Source: Escherichia coli
GTDB taxonomy: Bacteria; Pseudomonadota; Gammaproteobacteria; Enterobacterales; Enterobacteriaceae
Reading direction: 5' to 3' (one strand)
DNA: 64,000 nucleotides
NCBI RefSeq assembly: GCF_024700885.2
Contig: NZ_CP117016.1
Position 1 is the first letter of the stretch, and each line of letters opens with the position of its first letter. Shown piece by piece: positions 4,063 to 43,280 of this stretch. The position numbers were made by a program, and so were the translations under genes. The notes beneath the pieces are model-generated. The model was given only the letters and a program-made list of their open reading frames with translations. It did not search any database and was not told the DNA's origin.

Positions 4063-6910
4063 ACGAATCCCGCGATTTCCTGACCCTCTCGGCATATACC
4101 GTTAGCGTCTGTTTTATCACATCCAGCGTTACCGGCTTCGACAGGCAGCTGTCCATACCAGACTCCAGACACCGCTGCTTCTCTTCAGCCAACGCATTAG
4201 CAGTTACTCCGATTACCGGCAACGTCAGTCCCAACTGACGAATGCGTTGCGTCAAGCGGTAACCATCCATATTTGGCATGTTGACGTCGCTAAGCACGAT
4301 ATCAATATGATTCTTGCTAAGTACATTAAGCGCATCGACGCCATCATTCGCGGTTTTACATTGATAGCCCAACGATCCCAACTGATCTGCCAGAAGACGC
4401 CGGTTAATCGGATGATCATCCACAACCAGAATCATCATATCGTCGTTATCGCTGACCGCTTTGTCCGTCGACGGCAGAGCGTTAGCAGGATCATCGCTCT
4501 CCATCTCGATCAAATAAATACGCGCCAACAATGCCGGTAGCTCATGCGGGGCAGCCACACTGTGTACCCACTCCCCTGGCGCTTTCTCCAGCGGAATACC
4601 AATATGGCGACGACAGAAGGTCACTACCGCTCTACCCTGCCATTTTTTGCTCACTACCTCGTCAGTGATTAACACATCTTCGGGAGTCGGTTCCTGCCCT
4701 TCGTATGTTGTAACGACGATGCCGCTGCGCTGCAAACTGGTTTCCAGGAACTGACAGAGCGACGCATTGCGGACCGCCAGCCAGCAGCGTTTACCACTCA
4801 ACCCTTCCACGCCTTTTTTCTGCGGGTACTGAGCGCCGTACAACGGAATACGCACGGTAAACTGGCTGCCCATTCCCGGTTCTGAATCTACCGAGATGTC
4901 GCCGTCCATCATGCTGATCAGTTTTTCACAAATCGCCAGCCCCAGACCGGTCCCCTGGAAGTTACGCTGTACGCCCGTTCCGACCTGGAAGAAGGGATCA
5001 AACAAGCGCACCACTTCTTTCGCCGGAATCCCCACTCCGGTATCGCGAACGCGGATAGAGAGATAATCGCCATCAGCGCGAACATGCAAAACTATACAGC
5101 CGGTATCGGTGAATTTTATGGCGTTACTCAACAGGTTGGAGATGACCTGCTGTAAACGCATCGGGTCGCCATTTAAGGCCACTGGCACATCCGGTTCAAT
5201 AAAGCAGTACAAGCCTAGCTGCTTGCGTACCACCAGCGGTAAATAGTTGGCGGTGATGTGGTTCATCACTTCACGCGGTGAAAACTCACGCGGTTCGATC
5301 TTCAACTGTTCTGATTCAATTTTCGAGAAATCGAGAATATCGCTGATAATTTTCAACAACAGGCTGGAAGAGTTATTCATTGCCGTCACCAGCCGATCGA
5401 CGCCTTTCGGTAACTCTTTGGTTTGCAACAGATCCAGGTTACCGATAATGCCATACAGCGGCGTTCGCAGCTCATGACTGACGGTGGCAAGGAACATCGA
5501 TTTTGACTGGCTCGCCTGTTCCGCTGCTTGTGCCATCTCCTGCAACGACTCTTCCATCTTCACGCGCGAAGAAACATCCACCAGCACACAAATGGCCACG
5601 TTTTCATTACGATAGCGCGAATGGACGAAGCTGATTTGCAGATTGGTATTGTTGCTGGTCAGGACATCAACAAAATTGACCTGCTGCCCACAGATAATTT
5701 GTGTCAGCCGTTGGCGATCCTCATGCGTAAGCATATTGAGATAGGTATGCGCCAGTTCGTTACTTAAAATATTGACGCCATCAGCGGTACGCAAAATGCA
5801 GATACCCACTGGCGCGGAGGCGACAATCTTGCGATTAAACTGCTCATGTTCTTCCAGTCGCAGGGCGTCGCTTTCCGCCGGAATGAAAATACGTCGCTCG
5901 TACATCCGCGCGAGAGTAAACAATGCAGCTCCGGCAAGCACATTCAGCAAAATTGCGTTAAGGATCAACATGCGAATGCGTTCCAGCACCTTATCAACCG
6001 GCACCGAATACACGATGCTTAGCGATGAGGGTGGCAGATTTTTCTTCAGCACCAGCTCCCGGAACCCTTCCGTATAGCCAAACCAGGAGCGTTCCTGCAT
6101 CCAGCGAGGATCGCCCTTAATTTTGCTTTCTGGTCCGGTAAGCGAAATCAGGGTATGACCATTTTCATCAAGAATGGTAACCCCCATCGGCAACGTACCA
6201 GGTAAGAAAAAGTTCTCCATCCGGATGGTCTGCTCGACACCCAAAAGCGCCTGCAACCGGTTCGCCAGATAAACTGGCGTCAACGCGTAAAAATACCCGA
6301 CGCCAGGGCGCGGACCTTCGCTGATCCAGTAGAGGTTACTGCCGCTATCGTCTTGTGGTGCATTTCGATATTTATTGATGCGTTCATGCAAAGCTTTCAA
6401 CGCGGTATCGCGTTCCACTGGCATATCACGCAGACCGAAATTGGCCATGCAAAGGTTATCGCTGCCGATTAAAAATACCCGGTTGAGATCGTAAGCCGCA
6501 GAGAAATTATCGCGCCAGTAGCGCATAAACCACACCAATGACTCCAGAGAGCCTCGCCAGGTGTTACTCATTGCGGAACAATCGGAGTCGGCAAACAGCG
6601 GTTCAAACGCAGGCACATCCGCCTGCGTTTCTCGTCCACGCGGGGAAAGCACACCGTTTTCTGCCGATAAGCGATTTTCAGCTATGTACTTCAGCTCTTT
6701 CATCACATCAGAGGTACGTTGAATAAAGCGCTGAGCCTGATCGGAACTCAGATTAAATTCCTGACGAATTTCCGATTCTCGCTGATGTAACGCATTCACG
6801 ATGTAAAAAACGGATGAAAAAGCAATCAACAGCCAGAGCACTAACGCCAATGCTCGGAACATGTAGCGCGAGGCTTTCAGGGTTGTACGAAAAGAAGCAA
6901 GGTATTTCAA
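4061..6910 (-). CDS. rcsC: Hybrid sensor histidine kinase RcsC, 949 aa
   Basis: 949-aa ORF starting MKYLASFRTTLKASRYMF; start codon on the minus strand is TTG (6910-6908); histidine kinase H-box (SHELRTPL) and C-terminal receiver domain visible. Confidence 0.93.
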   Translation of the reverse strand: MKYLASFRTTLKASRYMFRALALVLWLLIAFSSVFYIVNALHQRESEIRQEFNLSSDQAQRFIQRTSDVMKELKYIAENRLSAENGVLSPRGRETQADVPAFEPLFADSDCSAMSNTWRGSLESLVWFMRYWRDNFSAAYDLNRVFLIGSDNLCMANFGLRDMPVERDTALKALHERINKYRNAPQDDSGSNLYWISEGPRPGVGYFYALTPVYLANRLQALLGVEQTIRMENFFLPGTLPMGVTILDENGHTLISLTGPESKIKGDPRWMQERSWFGYTEGFRELVLKKNLPPSSLSIVYSVPVDKVLERIRMLILNAILLNVLAGAALFTLARMYERRIFIPAESDALRLEEHEQFNRKIVASAPVGICILRTADGVNILSNELAHTYLNMLTHEDRQRLTQIICGQQVNFVDVLTSNNTNLQISFVHSRYRNENVAICVLVDVSSRVKMEESLQEMAQAAEQASQSKSMFLATVSHELRTPLYGIIGNLDLLQTKELPKGVDRLVTAMNNSSSLLLKIISDILDFSKIESEQLKIEPREFSPREVMNHITANYLPLVVRKQLGLYCFIEPDVPVALNGDPMRLQQVISNLLSNAIKFTDTGCIVLHVRADGDYLSIRVRDTGVGIPAKEVVRLFDPFFQVGTGVQRNFQGTGLGLAICEKLISMMDGDISVDSEPGMGSQFTVRIPLYGAQYPQKKGVEGLSGKRCWLAVRNASLCQFLETSLQRSGIVVTTYEGQEPTPEDVLITDEVVSKKWQGRAVVTFCRRHIGIPLEKAPGEWVHSVAAPHELPALLARIYLIEMESDDPANALPSTDKAVSDNDDMMILVVDDHPINRRLLADQLGSLGYQCKTANDGVDALNVLSKNHIDIVLSDVNMPNMDGYRLTQRIRQLGLTLPVIGVTANALAEEKQRCLESGMDSCLSKPVTLDVIKQTLTVYAERVRKSRDS

Positions 6911-7076
6911 AGGGGCGAAGCTCCGCCTCAGGTGACCGATGGAGTGTGGTTAAGGTAGCGGTAAAAGCGTGTTACCGCAATGTTCTCTCTTCTCTGGAAT
7001 ATGATACACCGCCGAGAAATCATCACCTTAACCTCTGATAATCGTCATATACCGGACAAGACTAGTGGATTTCAGC

Positions 7077-8903
7077 ATGCATTATATGAAGTGGATTTAT
7101 CCACGCCGCTTACGCAATCAAATGATCCTGATGGCAATCCTGATGGTCATTGTCCCAACGCTTACTATTGGTTATATCGTAGAAACGGAAGGACGTTCAG
7201 CAGTCTTATCTGAAAAAGAGAAAAAACTTTCTGCCGTGGTCAACCTGCTTAATCAGGCACTAGGCGATCGCTATGATCTCTACATCGACTTACCACGTGA
7301 GGAGCGTATCCGCGCATTAAATGCAGAACTTGCCCCCATTACCGAAAATATCACTCACGCCTTCCCTGGCATCGGCGCTGGTTATTACAACAAAACGCTG
7401 GATGCGATAATCACCTACGCGCCTTCAGCGCTATATCAGAATAATGTCGGCGTTACCATTGCCGCAGATCACCCTGGTCGCGAAGTCATGCGTACAAATA
7501 CCCCTTTGGTTTATTCAGGCAGGCAGGTGCGCGGCGATATTTTGAATTCAATGATCCCCATTGAGCGTAATGGTGAAATCCTCGGCTATATCTGGGCCAA
7601 TGAATTAACCGAAGATATTCGCCGCCAGGCCTGGAAAATGGATGTGAGGATTATCATTGTGCTCACCGCCGGTTTGCTGATAAGCCTGCTGTTGATTGTC
7701 CTTTTCTCCCGTCGCCTGAGCGCCAATATTGATATCATCACCGATGGCCTCTCGACTCTGGCGCAAAATATTCCCACTCGATTACCACAATTGCCCGGTG
7801 AAATGGGGCAAATCAGTCAGAGTGTTAACAACCTCGCCCAGGCACTGCGTGAAACGCGGACACTTAACGATCTGATTATTGAAAACGCTGCCGATGGCGT
7901 CATTGCCATTGACCGCCAGGGTGATGTAACCACCATGAACCCGGCAGCAGAAGTCATCACTGGCTATCAACGTCATGAACTGGTAGGGCAGCCTTACTCC
8001 ATGTTGTTCGACAATACTCAGTTCTACAGTCCAGTACTGGATACGCTGGAACATGGCACCGAACATGTAGCGCTGGAGATCAGTTTTCCAGGCCGTGACC
8101 GCACCATTGAACTCAGTGTCACTACCAGTCGTATTCATAACACGCATGGTGAAATGATAGGTGCTTTGGTGATTTTCTCTGATTTAACTGCCCGCAAAGA
8201 AACCCAGCGCCGCATGGCGCAAGCAGAACGCCTCGCCACACTGGGTGAGCTGATGGCTGGCGTCGCGCATGAAGTACGTAATCCGCTAACGGCTATTCGT
8301 GGTTATGTACAGATCTTGCGCCAACAAACCGGTGACCCAATACATCAGGAATATCTGTCCGTAGTACTCAAAGAAATCGATTCAATTAACAAAGTTATTC
8401 AGCAATTGCTCGAATTTTCACGTCCACGCCACAGTCAATGGCAACAAGTCAGCCTCAATGCATTGGTTGAAGAAACTCTGGTACTGGTACAAACCGCTGG
8501 CGTACAAGCGCGGATCGACTTCATAAGCGAACTGGATAATGAATTAAGCCCGATTAACGCCGATCGTGAACTGCTCAAACAGGTACTACTGAATATCCTG
8601 ATCAATGCCGTCCAGGCTATCAGTGCACGAGGGAAAATTCGCATTCGAACCTGGCAGTACAGCGACTCACAACAGGCCATTTCGATAGAGGACAACGGCT
8701 GTGGCATTGATCTCTCGCTGCAAAAAAAGATCTTCGATCCCTTTTTCACTACCAAAGCCTCAGGAACCGGGCTTGGTCTGGCGTTAAGTCAACGCATCAT
8801 TAATGCCCATCAGGGTGATATTCGCGTCGCCAGTTTGCCGGGCTACGGCGCAACCTTCACGCTTATTTTACCGATCAACCCGCAGGGAAATCAGACTGTA
8901 TGA
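7077..8903 (+). CDS. atoS: Sensor histidine kinase AtoS, 608 aa
   Basis: ATG at 7077 (MHYMKWIYPRRLRNQ...); HAMP/PAS region and H-box (AHEVRNPLTAI); overlaps the atoC start. Confidence 0.9.
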   Translation: MHYMKWIYPRRLRNQMILMAILMVIVPTLTIGYIVETEGRSAVLSEKEKKLSAVVNLLNQALGDRYDLYIDLPREERIRALNAELAPITENITHAFPGIGAGYYNKTLDAIITYAPSALYQNNVGVTIAADHPGREVMRTNTPLVYSGRQVRGDILNSMIPIERNGEILGYIWANELTEDIRRQAWKMDVRIIIVLTAGLLISLLLIVLFSRRLSANIDIITDGLSTLAQNIPTRLPQLPGEMGQISQSVNNLAQALRETRTLNDLIIENAADGVIAIDRQGDVTTMNPAAEVITGYQRHELVGQPYSMLFDNTQFYSPVLDTLEHGTEHVALEISFPGRDRTIELSVTTSRIHNTHGEMIGALVIFSDLTARKETQRRMAQAERLATLGELMAGVAHEVRNPLTAIRGYVQILRQQTGDPIHQEYLSVVLKEIDSINKVIQQLLEFSRPRHSQWQQVSLNALVEETLVLVQTAGVQARIDFISELDNELSPINADRELLKQVLLNILINAVQAISARGKIRIRTWQYSDSQQAISIEDNGCGIDLSLQKKIFDPFFTTKASGTGLGLALSQRIINAHQGDIRVASLPGYGATFTLILPINPQGNQTV

Positions 8904-13142: not shown

Positions 13143-14327
13143 ATGAAAAATTGTGTCATCGTCAGTGCGGTACGTACTGCTATCGGTAGTTTTAACGGTT
13201 CACTCGCTTCCACCAGCGCCATCGACCTGGGGGCGACAGTAATTAAAGCCGCCATTGAACGTGCAAAAATCGATTCACTACACATTGATGAAGTGATTAT
13301 GGGTAACGTGTTGCAAGCCGGGTTGGGGCAAAATCCGGCACGTCAGGCACTGTTAAAAAGCGGGCTGGCAGAAACGGTGTGCGGATTCACGGTCAATAAA
13401 GTGTGTGGTTCGGGTCTTAAAAGTGTGGCGCTTGCCGCCCAGGCAATTCAGGCAGGTCAGGCGCAAAGCATTGTGGCGGGGGGTATGGAAAATATGAGTT
13501 TAGCGCCCTACTTACTCGATGCAAAAGCACGCTCTGGTTATCGTCTTGGAGACGGACAGGTTTATGACGTAATCCTGCGCGATGGTCTGATGTGCGCCAC
13601 CCATGGTTATCATATGGGGATTACCGCCGAGAACGTGGCCAAAGAGTACGGAATTACCCGAGAAATGCAGGATGAACTGGCGCTACATTCACAGCGTAAA
13701 GCGGCAGCCGCAATTGAGTCCGGTGCTTTTACAGCCGAAATCGTCCCGGTAAATGTTGTCACTCGGAAGAAAACCTTCGTCTTCAGTCAAGACGAATTCC
13801 CGAAAGCGGATTCTACGACTGAAGCGTTAGGCGCATTGCGCCCGGCCTTCGATAAAGCAGGAACAGTCACCGCCGGGAACGCGTCTGGTATTAACGACGG
13901 TGCTGCCGCTCTGGTGATTATGGAAGAATCTGCGGCGCTGGCAGCAGGCCTTACCCCCCTGGCTCGCATTAAAAGTTATGCCAGCGGTGGCGTGCCCCCC
14001 GCATTGATGGGTATGGGGCCAGTACCTGCCACGCAAAAAGCGTTACAACTGGCGGGGCTGCAACTGGCGGATATTGATCTCATTGAGGCTAATGAAGCAT
14101 TTGCTGCACAGTTCCTTGCCGTTGGGAAAACCCTGGGCTTTGATTCTGAGAAAGTGAATGTCAACGGCGGGGCCATCGCGCTCGGGCATCCTATCGGTGC
14201 CAGTGGTGCTCGTATTCTGGTCACACTATTACATGCCATGCAGGCACGCGATAAAACGCTGGGGCTGGCAACACTGTGCATTGGTGGCGGCCAGGGAATT
14301 GCGATGGTGATTGAACGGTTGAATTAA
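13143..14327 (+). CDS. atoB: Acetyl-CoA acetyltransferase (thiolase II) AtoB, 394 aa
   Basis: 394-aa [24 protein letters not shown]; thiolase active-site region NKVCGSGLK. Confidence 0.92.
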
Positions 14328-14406
14328 CAAATCAGAACCACTCGCATGGCGGGTGGTTATCTGTTTCAGCCACGATGCGCCAGAAACAGACTAAAGTCAG
14401 AAAAGT

Positions 14407-14431
14407 AAAGGGCCGAATTTTCGGCCCTTTT
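14407..14431. terminator. Bidirectional rho-independent terminator shared by convergent atoB and gyrA
   Basis: Perfect palindrome AAAGGGCCGAA-TT-TTCGGCCCTTT flanked by an A-run on one side and a T-run on the other; 8 bp from the gyrA stop. Confidence 0.7.
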
Positions 14432-14438
14432 AACTTGA

Positions 14439-17075
14439 TTACTCGTCAGCGTCGTCTGCGACATCATCGTCGCTTTCCACTTCCGGAGCGATTTCATCGT
14501 CCCCTTCCGCGGCACTGCCATCGATGGTATCCAGATCTTCCTCGTCAACCGGTTCAGCAACACGTTGCAGACCCACTACGTTTTCATCTTCCGCAGTACG
14601 GATGAGGATCACGCCCTGGGTGTTACGACCTACGATGCTGATTTCCGAAACGCGAGTACGTACCAGCGTACCGGCATCAGTGATCATCATGATCTGGTCG
14701 CAGTCATCTACCTGCACCGCGCCAACCACTAAACCGTTACGTTCGGTAACCTTGATGGAGATAACCCCTTTCGTCGCACGCGACTTAGTCGGGTATTCCG
14801 CCACTGCGGTACGTTTACCATAACCGTTCTGCGTTGCGGTGAGGATTGCGCCATCGCCACGAGGCACGATCAGAGAGACGACTTTATCGCCTTCACCTAA
14901 GCGAATACCGCGAACACCGGTGGTGTTGCAGCCCATCGCACGGACAGAAGACTCTTTAAAGCGCACCACTTTACCTTCGGCGGAGAACAGCATTACTTCA
15001 TCTTCGCCGCTGGTCAGGTCAACGCCGATCAGCTCATCGCCTTCAACCAGTTTGATCGCCACTTTACCGGCGGTACGCAGACGGTTGAATTCGGTGAGGA
15101 CGGTTTTCTTAACAGTACCGTTAGCGGTCGCCATGAAGACTTTCACGCCTTCTTCAAACTCGGTCACCGGCAGGATCGCGGTGATACGTTCGTCCTGCTC
15201 CAGCGGCAGCAGGTTGACAATCGGACGACCGCGCGCGCCACGAGTGGCTTCCGGCAACTGATAGACTTTCATCGAATAGACGCGACCACGGCTGGAGAAG
15301 CACAGAATATGGTCGTGGGTGTTCGCCACCAGCAGTCGGTCAATAAAGTCTTCTTCTTTAATACGTGCGGCAGATTTGCCTTTCCCGCCACGACGCTGCG
15401 CTTCGTATTCAGAAAGCGGCTGATACTTCACGTAGCCCTGGTGAGAGAGCGTCACAACCACATCTTCCTGAGTGATCAGATCTTCCAGGTTGATGTCTGC
15501 GCTGTTGGCGGTGATTTCAGTGCGACGTTTGTCACCGAACTGTTCACGAACCAGTTCCAGCTCTTCGCGGATCACTTCCATCAGACGATCGGCACTGCCA
15601 AGAATACGCAGCAGTTCTGCGATCTGATCCAGCAGCTCTTTATATTCGTCGAGCAGTTTTTCGTGCTCAAGGCCGGTCAGTTTCTGCAAACGCAGATCCA
15701 GAATCGCCTGGGCTTGCTGTTCGGTCAGGTAGTACAGACCGTCACGCACGCCGAACTCTGGCTCCAGCCATTCCGGACGCGCAGCATCATCGCCCGCACG
15801 TTCGAGCATGGCGGCAACGTTGCCCAACTGCCACGGATTAGCAACCAGCGCAGTTTTCGCTTCTGCAGGCGTCGGCGCATGACGGATCAGTTCGATGATC
15901 GGGTCGATGTTCGCCAGCGCCACGGCTAATGCTTCAAGGATATGAGCACGATCGCGAGCTTTACGCAGTTCGAAAATAGTACGACGGGTCACCACTTCAC
16001 GGCGGTGACGAACAAACGCCGCGATGATGTCTTTCAGGTTCATGATCTTCGGCTGACCATGGTGCAATGCCACCATGTTGATACCGAAAGAAACCTGCAA
16101 CTGGGTCTGGGAGTAGAGGTTGTTAAGCACAACTTCACCGACCGCATCGCGTTTCACTTCAATCACGATGCGCATACCGTCTTTGTCAGACTCGTCACGC
16201 AGCGCGCTGATGCCTTCCACGCGTTTTTCTTTTACCAGTTCCGCAATCTTCTCGATCAGGCGCGCTTTGTTCACCTGATACGGAATTTCGTGGACGATAA
16301 TGGTTTCACGTCCGGTTTTGGCGTCAACTTCCACTTCAGCACGGGCGCGGATATATACCTTGCCGCGACCGGTACGGTAAGCTTCTTCAATACCGCGACG
16401 ACCATTAATGATTGCCGCCGTCGGGAAGTCCGGCCCAGGAATGTGTTCCATCAGCCCTTCAATGCTGATGTCTTCATCATCGATATACGCCAGACAACCG
16501 TTGATGACTTCCGTCAGGTTGTGCGGCGGGATGTTGGTTGCCATACCTACGGCGATACCGGAAGAACCGTTCACCAGCAGGTTAGGAATTTTGGTTGGCA
16601 TGACGTCGGGAATTTTTTCCGTGCCGTCATAGTTATCAACGAAATCGACCGTCTCTTTTTCGAGATCGGCCATCAGTTCATGGGCAATTTTCGCCAGACG
16701 GATTTCCGTATAACGCATTGCCGCCGCAGAGTCGCCGTCGATGGAACCGAAGTTACCCTGACCGTCTACCAGCATGTAACGCAGCGAGAATGGCTGCGCC
16801 ATACGGACGATCGTGTCATAAACCGCCAAGTCACCATGGGGATGGTATTTACCGATTACGTCACCAACGACACGGGCAGATTTTTTATAGGCTTTGTTCC
16901 AGTCATTGCCTAGTACGTTCATGGCGTAAAGTACGCGACGGTGTACCGGCTTCAGGCCATCTCGGACATCTGGCAGCGCACGGCCAACAATGACCGACAT
17001 CGCATAATCCAGATAGGAGCTCTTCAGCTCTTCCTCAATGTTGACCGGTGTAATTTCTCTCGCAAGGTCGCTCAT
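14439..17075 (-). CDS. gyrA: DNA gyrase subunit A, 878 aa, carrying Ser83Leu (quinolone-resistance-determining region)
   Basis: [21 protein letters not shown]...; residues 80-87 read HGDLAVYD (wild type HGDSAVYD); codon 83 is TTG at 16829-16827 on the minus strand; Asp87 unchanged. Confidence 0.97.
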
Positions 17076-43109: not shown

Positions 43110-43280
43110 TTCGCTAAGAAAACGCTGACGCCTGAGTTCATTAAGCAGCAAATAGGCCGTGCTTTTAGGGATCCCCAATGTGTCAATGATCGTCGCAGCA
43201 CTACAGGGGCCAATGCGGGCAATCAAATTGAGAATATCAATAGCCCGTGTCAGGGCGGGAACTTTGCTTGATTCCAACAT
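43110..43280 (-). pseudogene. rhmR: N-terminal fragment of rhmR (IclR-type HTH), separated from the rest by the IS
   Basis: Encodes MLESSKVPALTRAIDILNLIARIGPCSAATIIDTLGIPKSTAYLLLNELRRQRFLS (IclR HTH), then reads into the IS end. Confidence 0.6.

Follow-up and report, generated by a model that had tools for sequence, protein, structure and literature searches.

The window, i.e., the whole stretch of 64,000 nucleotides of Escherichia coli DNA analyzed in this study, very likely contains an ancestral-type junction between atoB and gyrA that was never occupied by the yfa genes. The yfa block located between the two genes in strain K-12 would then represent an old insertion. This interpretation is based on sequence comparisons of the junction with K-12, other E. 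coli genomes, and related Enterobacteriaceae.

Anatomy of the atoB-gyrA junction

The convergent genes atoB and gyrA end in stop codons that are separated by 111 bp, and the spacer contains a perfect palindrome, all of which is directly visible in the sequence and had been noted in the first-pass annotation. The gene identities were taken from NCBIfam matches and from the RefSeq annotation of a near-identical genome, strain MLI114 (human stool, Mali), which differs from the window by 1 base in 50 kb and by 0 over the remaining 14.5 kb. The features of the locus are as follows:

13143-14327, + strand: atoB (acetyl-CoA acetyltransferase), last gene of atoDAEB; open reading frame (ORF), NCBIfam thiolase matches, RefSeq annotation
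14328-14438, no strand: atoB/gyrA spacer of 111 bp, the yfa-less (unoccupied) allele; shared without differences by 26 of 5,426 complete E. coli genomes
14329-14402, - strand (transposase sense): miniature element of ~73 nt with homology to the left end of the IS200 family; ends uncertain by a few nt
14336-14358, + strand: hairpin 1, 10-bp stem with tail ATCTGTTTCA, terminator-like; 9 nt past the atoB stop
14360-14390, no strand: hairpin 2 of the miniature element, 8-bp stem TCTGTTTC/GAAACAGA; repeat and fold analysis
14407-14430, - strand: perfect 11+11 palindrome, predicted ancestral-type intrinsic terminator of gyrA, plausibly bidirectional
14439-14475, - strand: allele-specific 3' end of gyrA (stop and last 12 codons), ancestral distal acidic tail
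14439-17075, - strand: gyrA, 878 codons, S83L; ORF, NCBIfam, RefSeq annotation

In K-12 MG1655, the genes yfaP, yfaQ, yfaS (a pseudogene), yfaT, and yfaA occupy ~9.5 kb between atoB and gyrA (L001, 3295-12793), whereas the window has no A2M-family, DUF2138, MagC, DUF2300, or YfaP genes at this position. atoB and gyrA are thus not adjacent in K-12, and the statement in the first-pass annotation that a cluster including yfaS lies between them there, and is absent here, was confirmed. Alignment of the window to both K-12 flanks revealed that homology on the left side ends at the atoB stop codon and on the right restarts only at position 14476, 37 nt inside gyrA, so that the two sequences are unalignable from the atoB stop to gyrA codon 866. 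Both flanks diverge from K-12 by 1-2%, which is ordinary for E. coli. The spacer matches neither flank of the K-12 block, and nothing in 14328-14475 could be aligned to the block or its edges; neither a yfa remnant nor a K-12-type flank was found there. The check proposed in the first-pass annotation, an alignment to K-12 and other E. coli genomes with a search for remnants at the junction, thus recovered no traces of yfa genes. Furthermore, GyrA comprises 878 amino acids in the window versus 875 in K-12, where it ends in ...DVDDEPEEE (APEVDVDDEPEEE), the last 12 codons being different, and the gyrA terminator sequence reads GGGCCGAAAATTCGGCCC in the window versus GGGAGCTATCTCCC in K-12. As judged from these alignments, a clean removal of the K-12 block would not have produced the window junction.

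The spacer comprises three hairpins (14336-14358, 14360-14390, and 14407-14430) with fold z-scores of -6.3 and -5.4 against shuffled sequences on the two strands. The third is the perfect inverted repeat AAAGGGCCGAA/TTCGGCCCTTT with 11-nt arms, the sole repeat of such quality in the 64-kb window (0 in 20 shuffles; fold z-scores of about -4.5 on both strands). It forms a stem of 10-11 bp with 6 G-C pairs and starts 8 nt past the gyrA stop. A terminator scan called hairpin 1 on the + strand and the palindrome on the - strand, where the tail ACTTTTCTGA follows the CCCTTT stem end. On the + strand, the palindrome is followed by a short T-run, TTTT, and then by AACTTG, and the full stem was not called by the scan. 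Termination by the palindrome in both directions is plausible: with A/T runs on both sides, it may stop RNA polymerase arriving from either gene, and it resembles known bidirectional intrinsic terminators in being a perfect, GC-rich palindrome between convergent genes that is bordered by A-rich and T-rich sequence. Unlike such systems, however, the window does not rely on one shared element, as a second terminator-like hairpin is located on a mobile-element remnant beside atoB. This hairpin 1 is an atoB-proximal terminator candidate and probably ends the atoDAEB transcripts. The proposal of one shared terminator in the first-pass annotation therefore holds only in part: the palindrome represents the conserved, predicted terminator of gyrA, which could act both ways, but atoB has a terminator-like hairpin of its own. 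An Rfam scan of 14250-14500 at a permissive threshold assigned no family; sraA and AgrB appeared only at 18-19 bits against gathering thresholds of 40-56, and these sub-threshold matches were driven by the terminator.

The atoB-proximal part of the spacer (14329-14402) matched single-copy sequences in 23 other E. coli genomes with 79-88% identity. These copies are located in two lambdoid prophage regions and one O-antigen cluster and have the same edges each time, and sharp-edged copies were found in four unrelated Escherichia contexts. In the O-antigen cluster, the element interrupts an IS630-family transposase gene as an exact insertion of 74 nt, as seen by comparison with two uninterrupted copies. 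Metagenomes were searched with a 21-nt degenerate core of the element, which retrieved ~40 distinct sequences; all but four represented ~65 nt at the terminus of IS200-type elements measuring ~700 bp. A Pfam Y1_Tnp ORF adjoins one of these IS200-like left ends (L063), and relatives on plasmids are annotated as IS200/IS605 family, ISDha13-like. Across the IS200-like left ends, the sequence and length of hairpins 2 and 3 are variable, but their self-complementarity is kept. Together, these similarities indicate that the spacer piece is a miniature element derived from an IS200 left end, a small side discovery of this analysis. Like the ends of IS200/IS605 elements and their PATE- or MITE-like derivatives, it aligns over ~65 terminal nt including the subterminal hairpins and forms a discrete insertion with no obvious target duplication, but it is far smaller than the described derivatives, consists of essentially one end only, and occurs in at most one copy per genome. 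Full-length IS200-like copies have (G/A)TAA at their flanks, which corresponds to a TTAC/TTAT target read on the opposite strand; in the Escherichia mini-copies, neither a consistent target nor right-end homology was identified. A cognate full-length IS was not detected among the E. coli genomes, and in plasmid and phage collections the element gave a weak match to one E. albertii plasmid and a match to one phage (Chlobot).

Members of the metagenomic IS200-like family are present in L063 (1600-2345 and 8126), L066, L077, L092, L103, and L107. The family also includes shorter derivatives that combine the right half of the left-end hairpin with a different sequence, ...GGGG(T/A)CATAGCA, and these probably represent MITE-like forms with internal deletions. 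A relationship of the spacer element to IS200C of strain E2348/69 or to ISEc46 in the window was considered and dismissed, the similarity being weak and probably due to chance. ISEc46 itself, with an IS200/IS605 tnpA and a TnpB/InsQ RNA-guided endonuclease gene, adjoins yfaU at ~41023-43280; it is flanked by fragments of a truncated helix-turn-helix and an IclR-family regulator and apparently disrupts the regulator region for rhamnonate utilisation. We also rejected the idea that the K-12 atoB terminator is a remnant of hairpin 1, as would result from an insertion inside the element: the alignment was no better than shuffles (657/2000), the match to the IS200 left-end consensus was borderline (15/2000), and the similar stem is K-12-specific.

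Junction types in the Enterobacteriaceae and the yfa cassette

A single genome of each bacterial species was scanned for DVADDADE directly preceding a stop codon; this yielded 30 loci, 29 of them from Enterobacteriaceae other than E. coli. These represent at least 12 genera including Salmonella, Citrobacter, Kluyvera, Enterobacter, Trabulsiella, Pseudocitrobacter, Superficieibacter, Shimwellia, Cedecea, Pluralibacter, Dryocola, and others. The last ten GyrA residues of this tail were invariant in all 29 species and in SCPM-O-B-8794 (see below), and the fetched flanks of the 30 loci contained no yfa genes. In most of the 29 species, a hairpin of the AAAGGGCC...GGCCCTTT type directly follows gyrA. 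Judged by eye, the stems of the gyrA hairpins covary among species (GGGCCGG, GGCCGGTT, GAGCCGGT, and GGGCCAGC). In its generic shape, the K-12 terminator, AAAAGGGAG...CTCCCTT, equals the ancestral ones, the stem in C. amalonaticus being GGGAGGC. Due to this likeness, the insertion cannot be delimited on its right side at single-nucleotide resolution, and the tail may have changed in a separate, earlier event.

The 30th locus is from strain SCPM-O-B-8794, which is labelled E. coli and is as distant from E. coli as E. albertii (nucleotide identity of 95.6-95.8% for gyrA and 89% for atoE-atoB). In this strain, atoE-atoB adjoin gyrA with an orthologous spacer of 115 bp, which differs from the window spacer by 10 substitutions in 111 nt (~9%) and one 4-nt indel and has diverged to the same degree as the flanking ato (11%) and gyrA (4.4%) genes. 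atoB is also directly convergent on gyrA in Enterobacteriaceae LSJC7 and a MAG, which represent another genus-level group. The miniature element was found in the spacers of E. coli and SCPM-O-B-8794 and was absent from the LSJC7-type junction, a distribution which suggests that it entered the spacer early in Escherichia. Based on these directly observed outgroup states, the tail, terminator, and gene adjacency of the window appear to be ancestral, and those of K-12 derived. The 12 ancestral codons and the orthologous spacer could not be regenerated by a deletion, which indicates that the site was never occupied and that the yfa block is an insertion. The first-pass annotation had likewise favored an insertion in K-12 over a scarred deletion here, and the outgroups bear this out. 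The reason it gave, the cleanness of the junction, fails, as the last 12 gyrA codons and the terminator differ from K-12 and the spacer holds the element derived from an IS200 end.

A record labelled Chryseobacterium sp. 18061 (L036) contained enterobacterial GyrA and UbiG, 89% and 87% identical to those of the window, and a region downstream of gyrA nearly identical to that of "Citrobacter sp. 18056". This record is probably mislabelled or contaminated; its GyrA tail has an internal duplication.

The K-12 yfa products match the Pfam families DUF2138, MagC, MG2/A2M_BRD/A2M, DUF2300, and YfaP_C, and yfaP-Q-S-T-A is the E. coli counterpart of the type-II bacterial alpha-2-macroglobulin operon, magABCDEF, of Pseudomonas aeruginosa. 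[quoted passage not shown] None of this operon is present in the window. The identity of YfaA is 100% within E. coli and 91% in E. albertii, then 71%, 63%, and ~50% or lower. The copy with 71% identity is part of an enteric metagenome scaffold, where the five genes follow pgsA and a Gly-Cys-Leu tRNA cluster in the same order, and the copy with 63% identity lies in the cys region of Entomohabitans, again with the same five genes in the same order. The occurrence of the same five-gene cassette at different chromosomal sites indicates that the yfa genes move as a unit. In the metagenome scaffold, three apparent tRNA genes (recognized by eye) form the pgsA-linked cluster immediately upstream of the cassette (L055, 9332-10000), a typical integration position of genomic islands. 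New for the mag/yfa operon are this behavior as a transposable cassette at different sites and the probable damage to the 3' end of gyrA upon its arrival in Escherichia.

In E. albertii, gyrA (875 amino acids, with the derived tail and spacer) is followed by yfaA-T-S-Q-P, ~180 nt of the atoS 5' end, and rcsC. The nucleotide identity between E. albertii and K-12 is 86-93% for the yfa genes, 94% for gyrA, and 93% for ubiG, and the yfa level is thus typical for this species pair. Because the insertion and the altered gyrA end are also present in E. albertii, the insertion appears to be old and to predate the split of E. coli and E. albertii, the latter having later lost ato. With 53.3%, the GC content of the yfa block gave no compositional signal against the flanks (53.1-53.6%). 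A cassette-borne origin of the K-12 gyrA tail and spacer was tried as an explanation and rejected, as no significant similarity was found upstream of yfaA at other sites. A protein-database search for other ...DVDDEPEEE tails returned only Escherichia fragments; such a short query retrieves fragments only and says nothing on donors.

Loss of ato on the other side of yfa gives the locus three allelic states. In ~1,500 E. coli (e.g., O157:H7 Z892) and in E. albertii, rcsC lies directly beside yfaP and the ato operon is gone, leaving a decayed remnant of the atoS 5' end (92% identity over 475 nt in E. albertii, 78% over 69 nt in O157; coordinates 6784-7258 in the window, 19326-19800 in L054, and 4728-5001 in L059). 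In strain AH04, which carries yfa, an IS1A is inserted in the 73-bp atoB-yfaP spacer beside a frameshifted atoB (L060, 4288-4985), and this copy shows that the short convergent spacers at the locus are recurrent targets of mobile elements.

Frequency and possible histories of the yfa-less allele

A junction of the window type was present in 26 of the 5,426 complete E. coli genomes, with one hit in each, and the K-12-type yfaA-gyrA junction in 5,396 (~99.4%). The yfa genes therefore constitute a nearly core operon, and the empty site is a rare state. By calling the difference a strain-specific indel, the first-pass annotation rightly identified a presence/absence difference but understated its age and spread: the insertion is ancient and occurs in 5,396 of 5,426 E. 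coli and in E. albertii, and it is the survival of the unoccupied allele that is unusual. Our search of the literature on the distribution of yfaS, yfaP, and yfaA found nothing on this polymorphism. Twenty-four of the 26 empty-site genomes belong to one clone, identical across an 8-kb test region, which was obtained from humans, poultry, dogs, and water and includes O166:H15 outbreak strains. The other two, 19KM1831 and N3, have flanks that differ from the window by 1-4% and an identical junction of 153 bp. In N3, atoB is frameshifted (L008, 11545-12728), and ato function is thus decaying in this lineage. In its flanks, the window resembles K-12 more closely than it resembles 19KM1831 or N3, and neither a shared flank haplotype nor a divergent recombination tract was found among the empty-site genomes.

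True deletions of yfa genes look different. The yfaQ-yfaS interior was found in 5,383 genomes and was missing from 43 of 5,426, among which 26 have the ancestral junction. The remaining ~17 must be deletions that keep the K-12 junction, because 5,396 genomes have retained it. In 06-00048, for example, the middle of the yfa block was lost, while the 875-residue gyrA with the K-12 tail, the K-12 spacers, and fragments of yfaP and yfaA were kept.

We propose that, in the common ancestor of E. coli and E. albertii, the five-gene type-II alpha-2-macroglobulin cassette (yfaA-T-S-Q-P, 9.5 kb) was inserted at the atoB-gyrA junction. The same replacement would have removed ~150 bp, comprising the spacer, the terminator, and the last 12 gyrA codons, and left 9 new codons (...DVDDEPEEE) together with a different terminator. 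The window clone and two other lineages may have kept the old allele as a long-lived variant of low frequency or may have regained it through homologous recombination with a closely related yfa-less organism; gyrA would have kept its ancestral form of 878 codons with a 38-residue acidic tail. The phylogenetic placement is at odds with a simple story, as E. albertii is occupied and some E. coli and another Escherichia lineage are empty. From the insertion shared with E. albertii it follows that the empty allele either persisted through or re-entered the E. coli radiation.

If the ancestor of the clone had been K-12-like, a secondary loss of yfaP-yfaA might have left a tidy junction. Deletions in this region are exemplified by the ~17 genomes mentioned above, and the nearest yfa-carrying relatives of the window clone, such as YDC107, are 99.0-99.2% identical to it across 8 kb. 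Nevertheless, we consider such a deletion very improbable, since it cannot recreate 12 ancestral codons, the ancestral terminator, and a spacer orthologous to that of another Escherichia, and it would have to leave 14328-14475 free of any yfa remnant or K-12-type flank. The chance that the block is missing owing to an assembly collapse appears negligible, as 26 genomes that were finished independently, and that come from several countries and hosts, share the identical junction, which is also present in a metagenome contig (L083). A history that deserves more attention is introgression, in which the empty-site E. coli once carried yfa and the block was replaced by recombination, with crossovers in atoB and gyrA, from a closely related yfa-less donor. 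The insertion is older than the split of E. coli and E. albertii, yet the empty allele is found in 26 of 5,426 genomes of three lineages, which share the 153-bp junction while their flanks differ, and with SCPM-O-B-8794 a yfa-less Escherichia lineage exists. However, the flanks of the window are ordinary E. coli up to the junction and no closer to SCPM-O-B-8794 than those of K-12, and its spacer is ~9% different from that of SCPM-O-B-8794, so that any donor must have been an unsampled, E. coli-like organism; moreover, zero differences in 153 bp are weakly informative. We regard this route as a realistic possibility, albeit one with a probability well short of even.

Instead of a single replacement, an unrelated local mutation might have rewritten the gyrA tail and terminator in the ancestor of E. 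coli and E. albertii, with the cassette being inserted downstream afterwards. This sequence of two events agrees with the resemblance of the K-12 terminator to some ancestral-type forms such as that of C. amalonaticus, with the lack of a cassette-borne homolog of the K-12 tail or spacer elsewhere, and with the variation of GyrA tails in a few other enterics. By contrast, tail type and yfa occupancy were perfectly associated in all genomes examined (5,422 E. coli, E. albertii, SCPM-O-B-8794, and 29 other species), and the non-homologous stretch extends unbroken from the tail through the spacer. These observations render two events unlikely, and we infer that one event, the arrival of the cassette, also changed the acidic distal end of GyrA.

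The acidic tail of GyrA and supercoiling

The acidic C-terminal tail of GyrA is known as a "rheostat" (Rovinskiy et al. 2019, PMC6463007; reportedly also Tretter and Berger 2012). The tail comprises 38 residues, 20 of them acidic, in the window and 35 residues, 19 of them acidic, in K-12. In chromosomal chimeras, supercoil density and fitness were controlled in a species-specific manner by the C-terminal 35 residues in E. coli GyrA (19 acidic) and the C-terminal 38 in Salmonella GyrA (20 acidic) (Rovinskiy et al. 2019, PMC6463007). The figures for K-12 and the window thus equal those published for E. coli and Salmonella. In contrast to the proteins in that study, however, the window GyrA is a natural chimera, which combines an E. 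coli body and proximal tail with ancestral (Salmonella-like) distal 12 residues. Neither the origin of the tail difference nor a polymorphism within E. coli is discussed there (PMC6463007). The segment that differs between the occupied and unoccupied alleles holds approximately half of the tail differences between E. coli and Salmonella and the whole length difference of 3 residues.

At codon 83 (16827-16829), the gyrA gene of the window has TTG where K-12 has TCG, which corresponds to S83L, the classic first-step substitution in fluoroquinolone resistance. Codon 87 is wild type, and D678E is also present.

The position of the indel boundary inside an essential gene sets this case apart from the routine presence or absence of an accessory operon. 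For approximately half of the tail difference between E. coli and Salmonella, a concrete origin can be offered, namely one ancient cassette insertion. Whether the arrival of the cassette, by rewriting the GyrA tail, also contributed to the higher, "addictive" supercoiling set point of E. coli compared to Salmonella is a speculative and rather doubtful extension of this idea. If it were true, the ~0.5% of E. coli with the ancestral tail, including the fluoroquinolone-resistant S83L clone, would operate a gyrase "rheostat" with measurably different properties or harbor compensatory changes. Natural isolates with an E. coli gyrase body and the ancestral distal tail, i.e., MLI114, O166:H15 JNE, poultry GPEC, N3, and 19KM1831, are ready material for studying the "rheostat" model without engineering, and the empty-site strains are at the same time naturally devoid of the mag/yfa operon.
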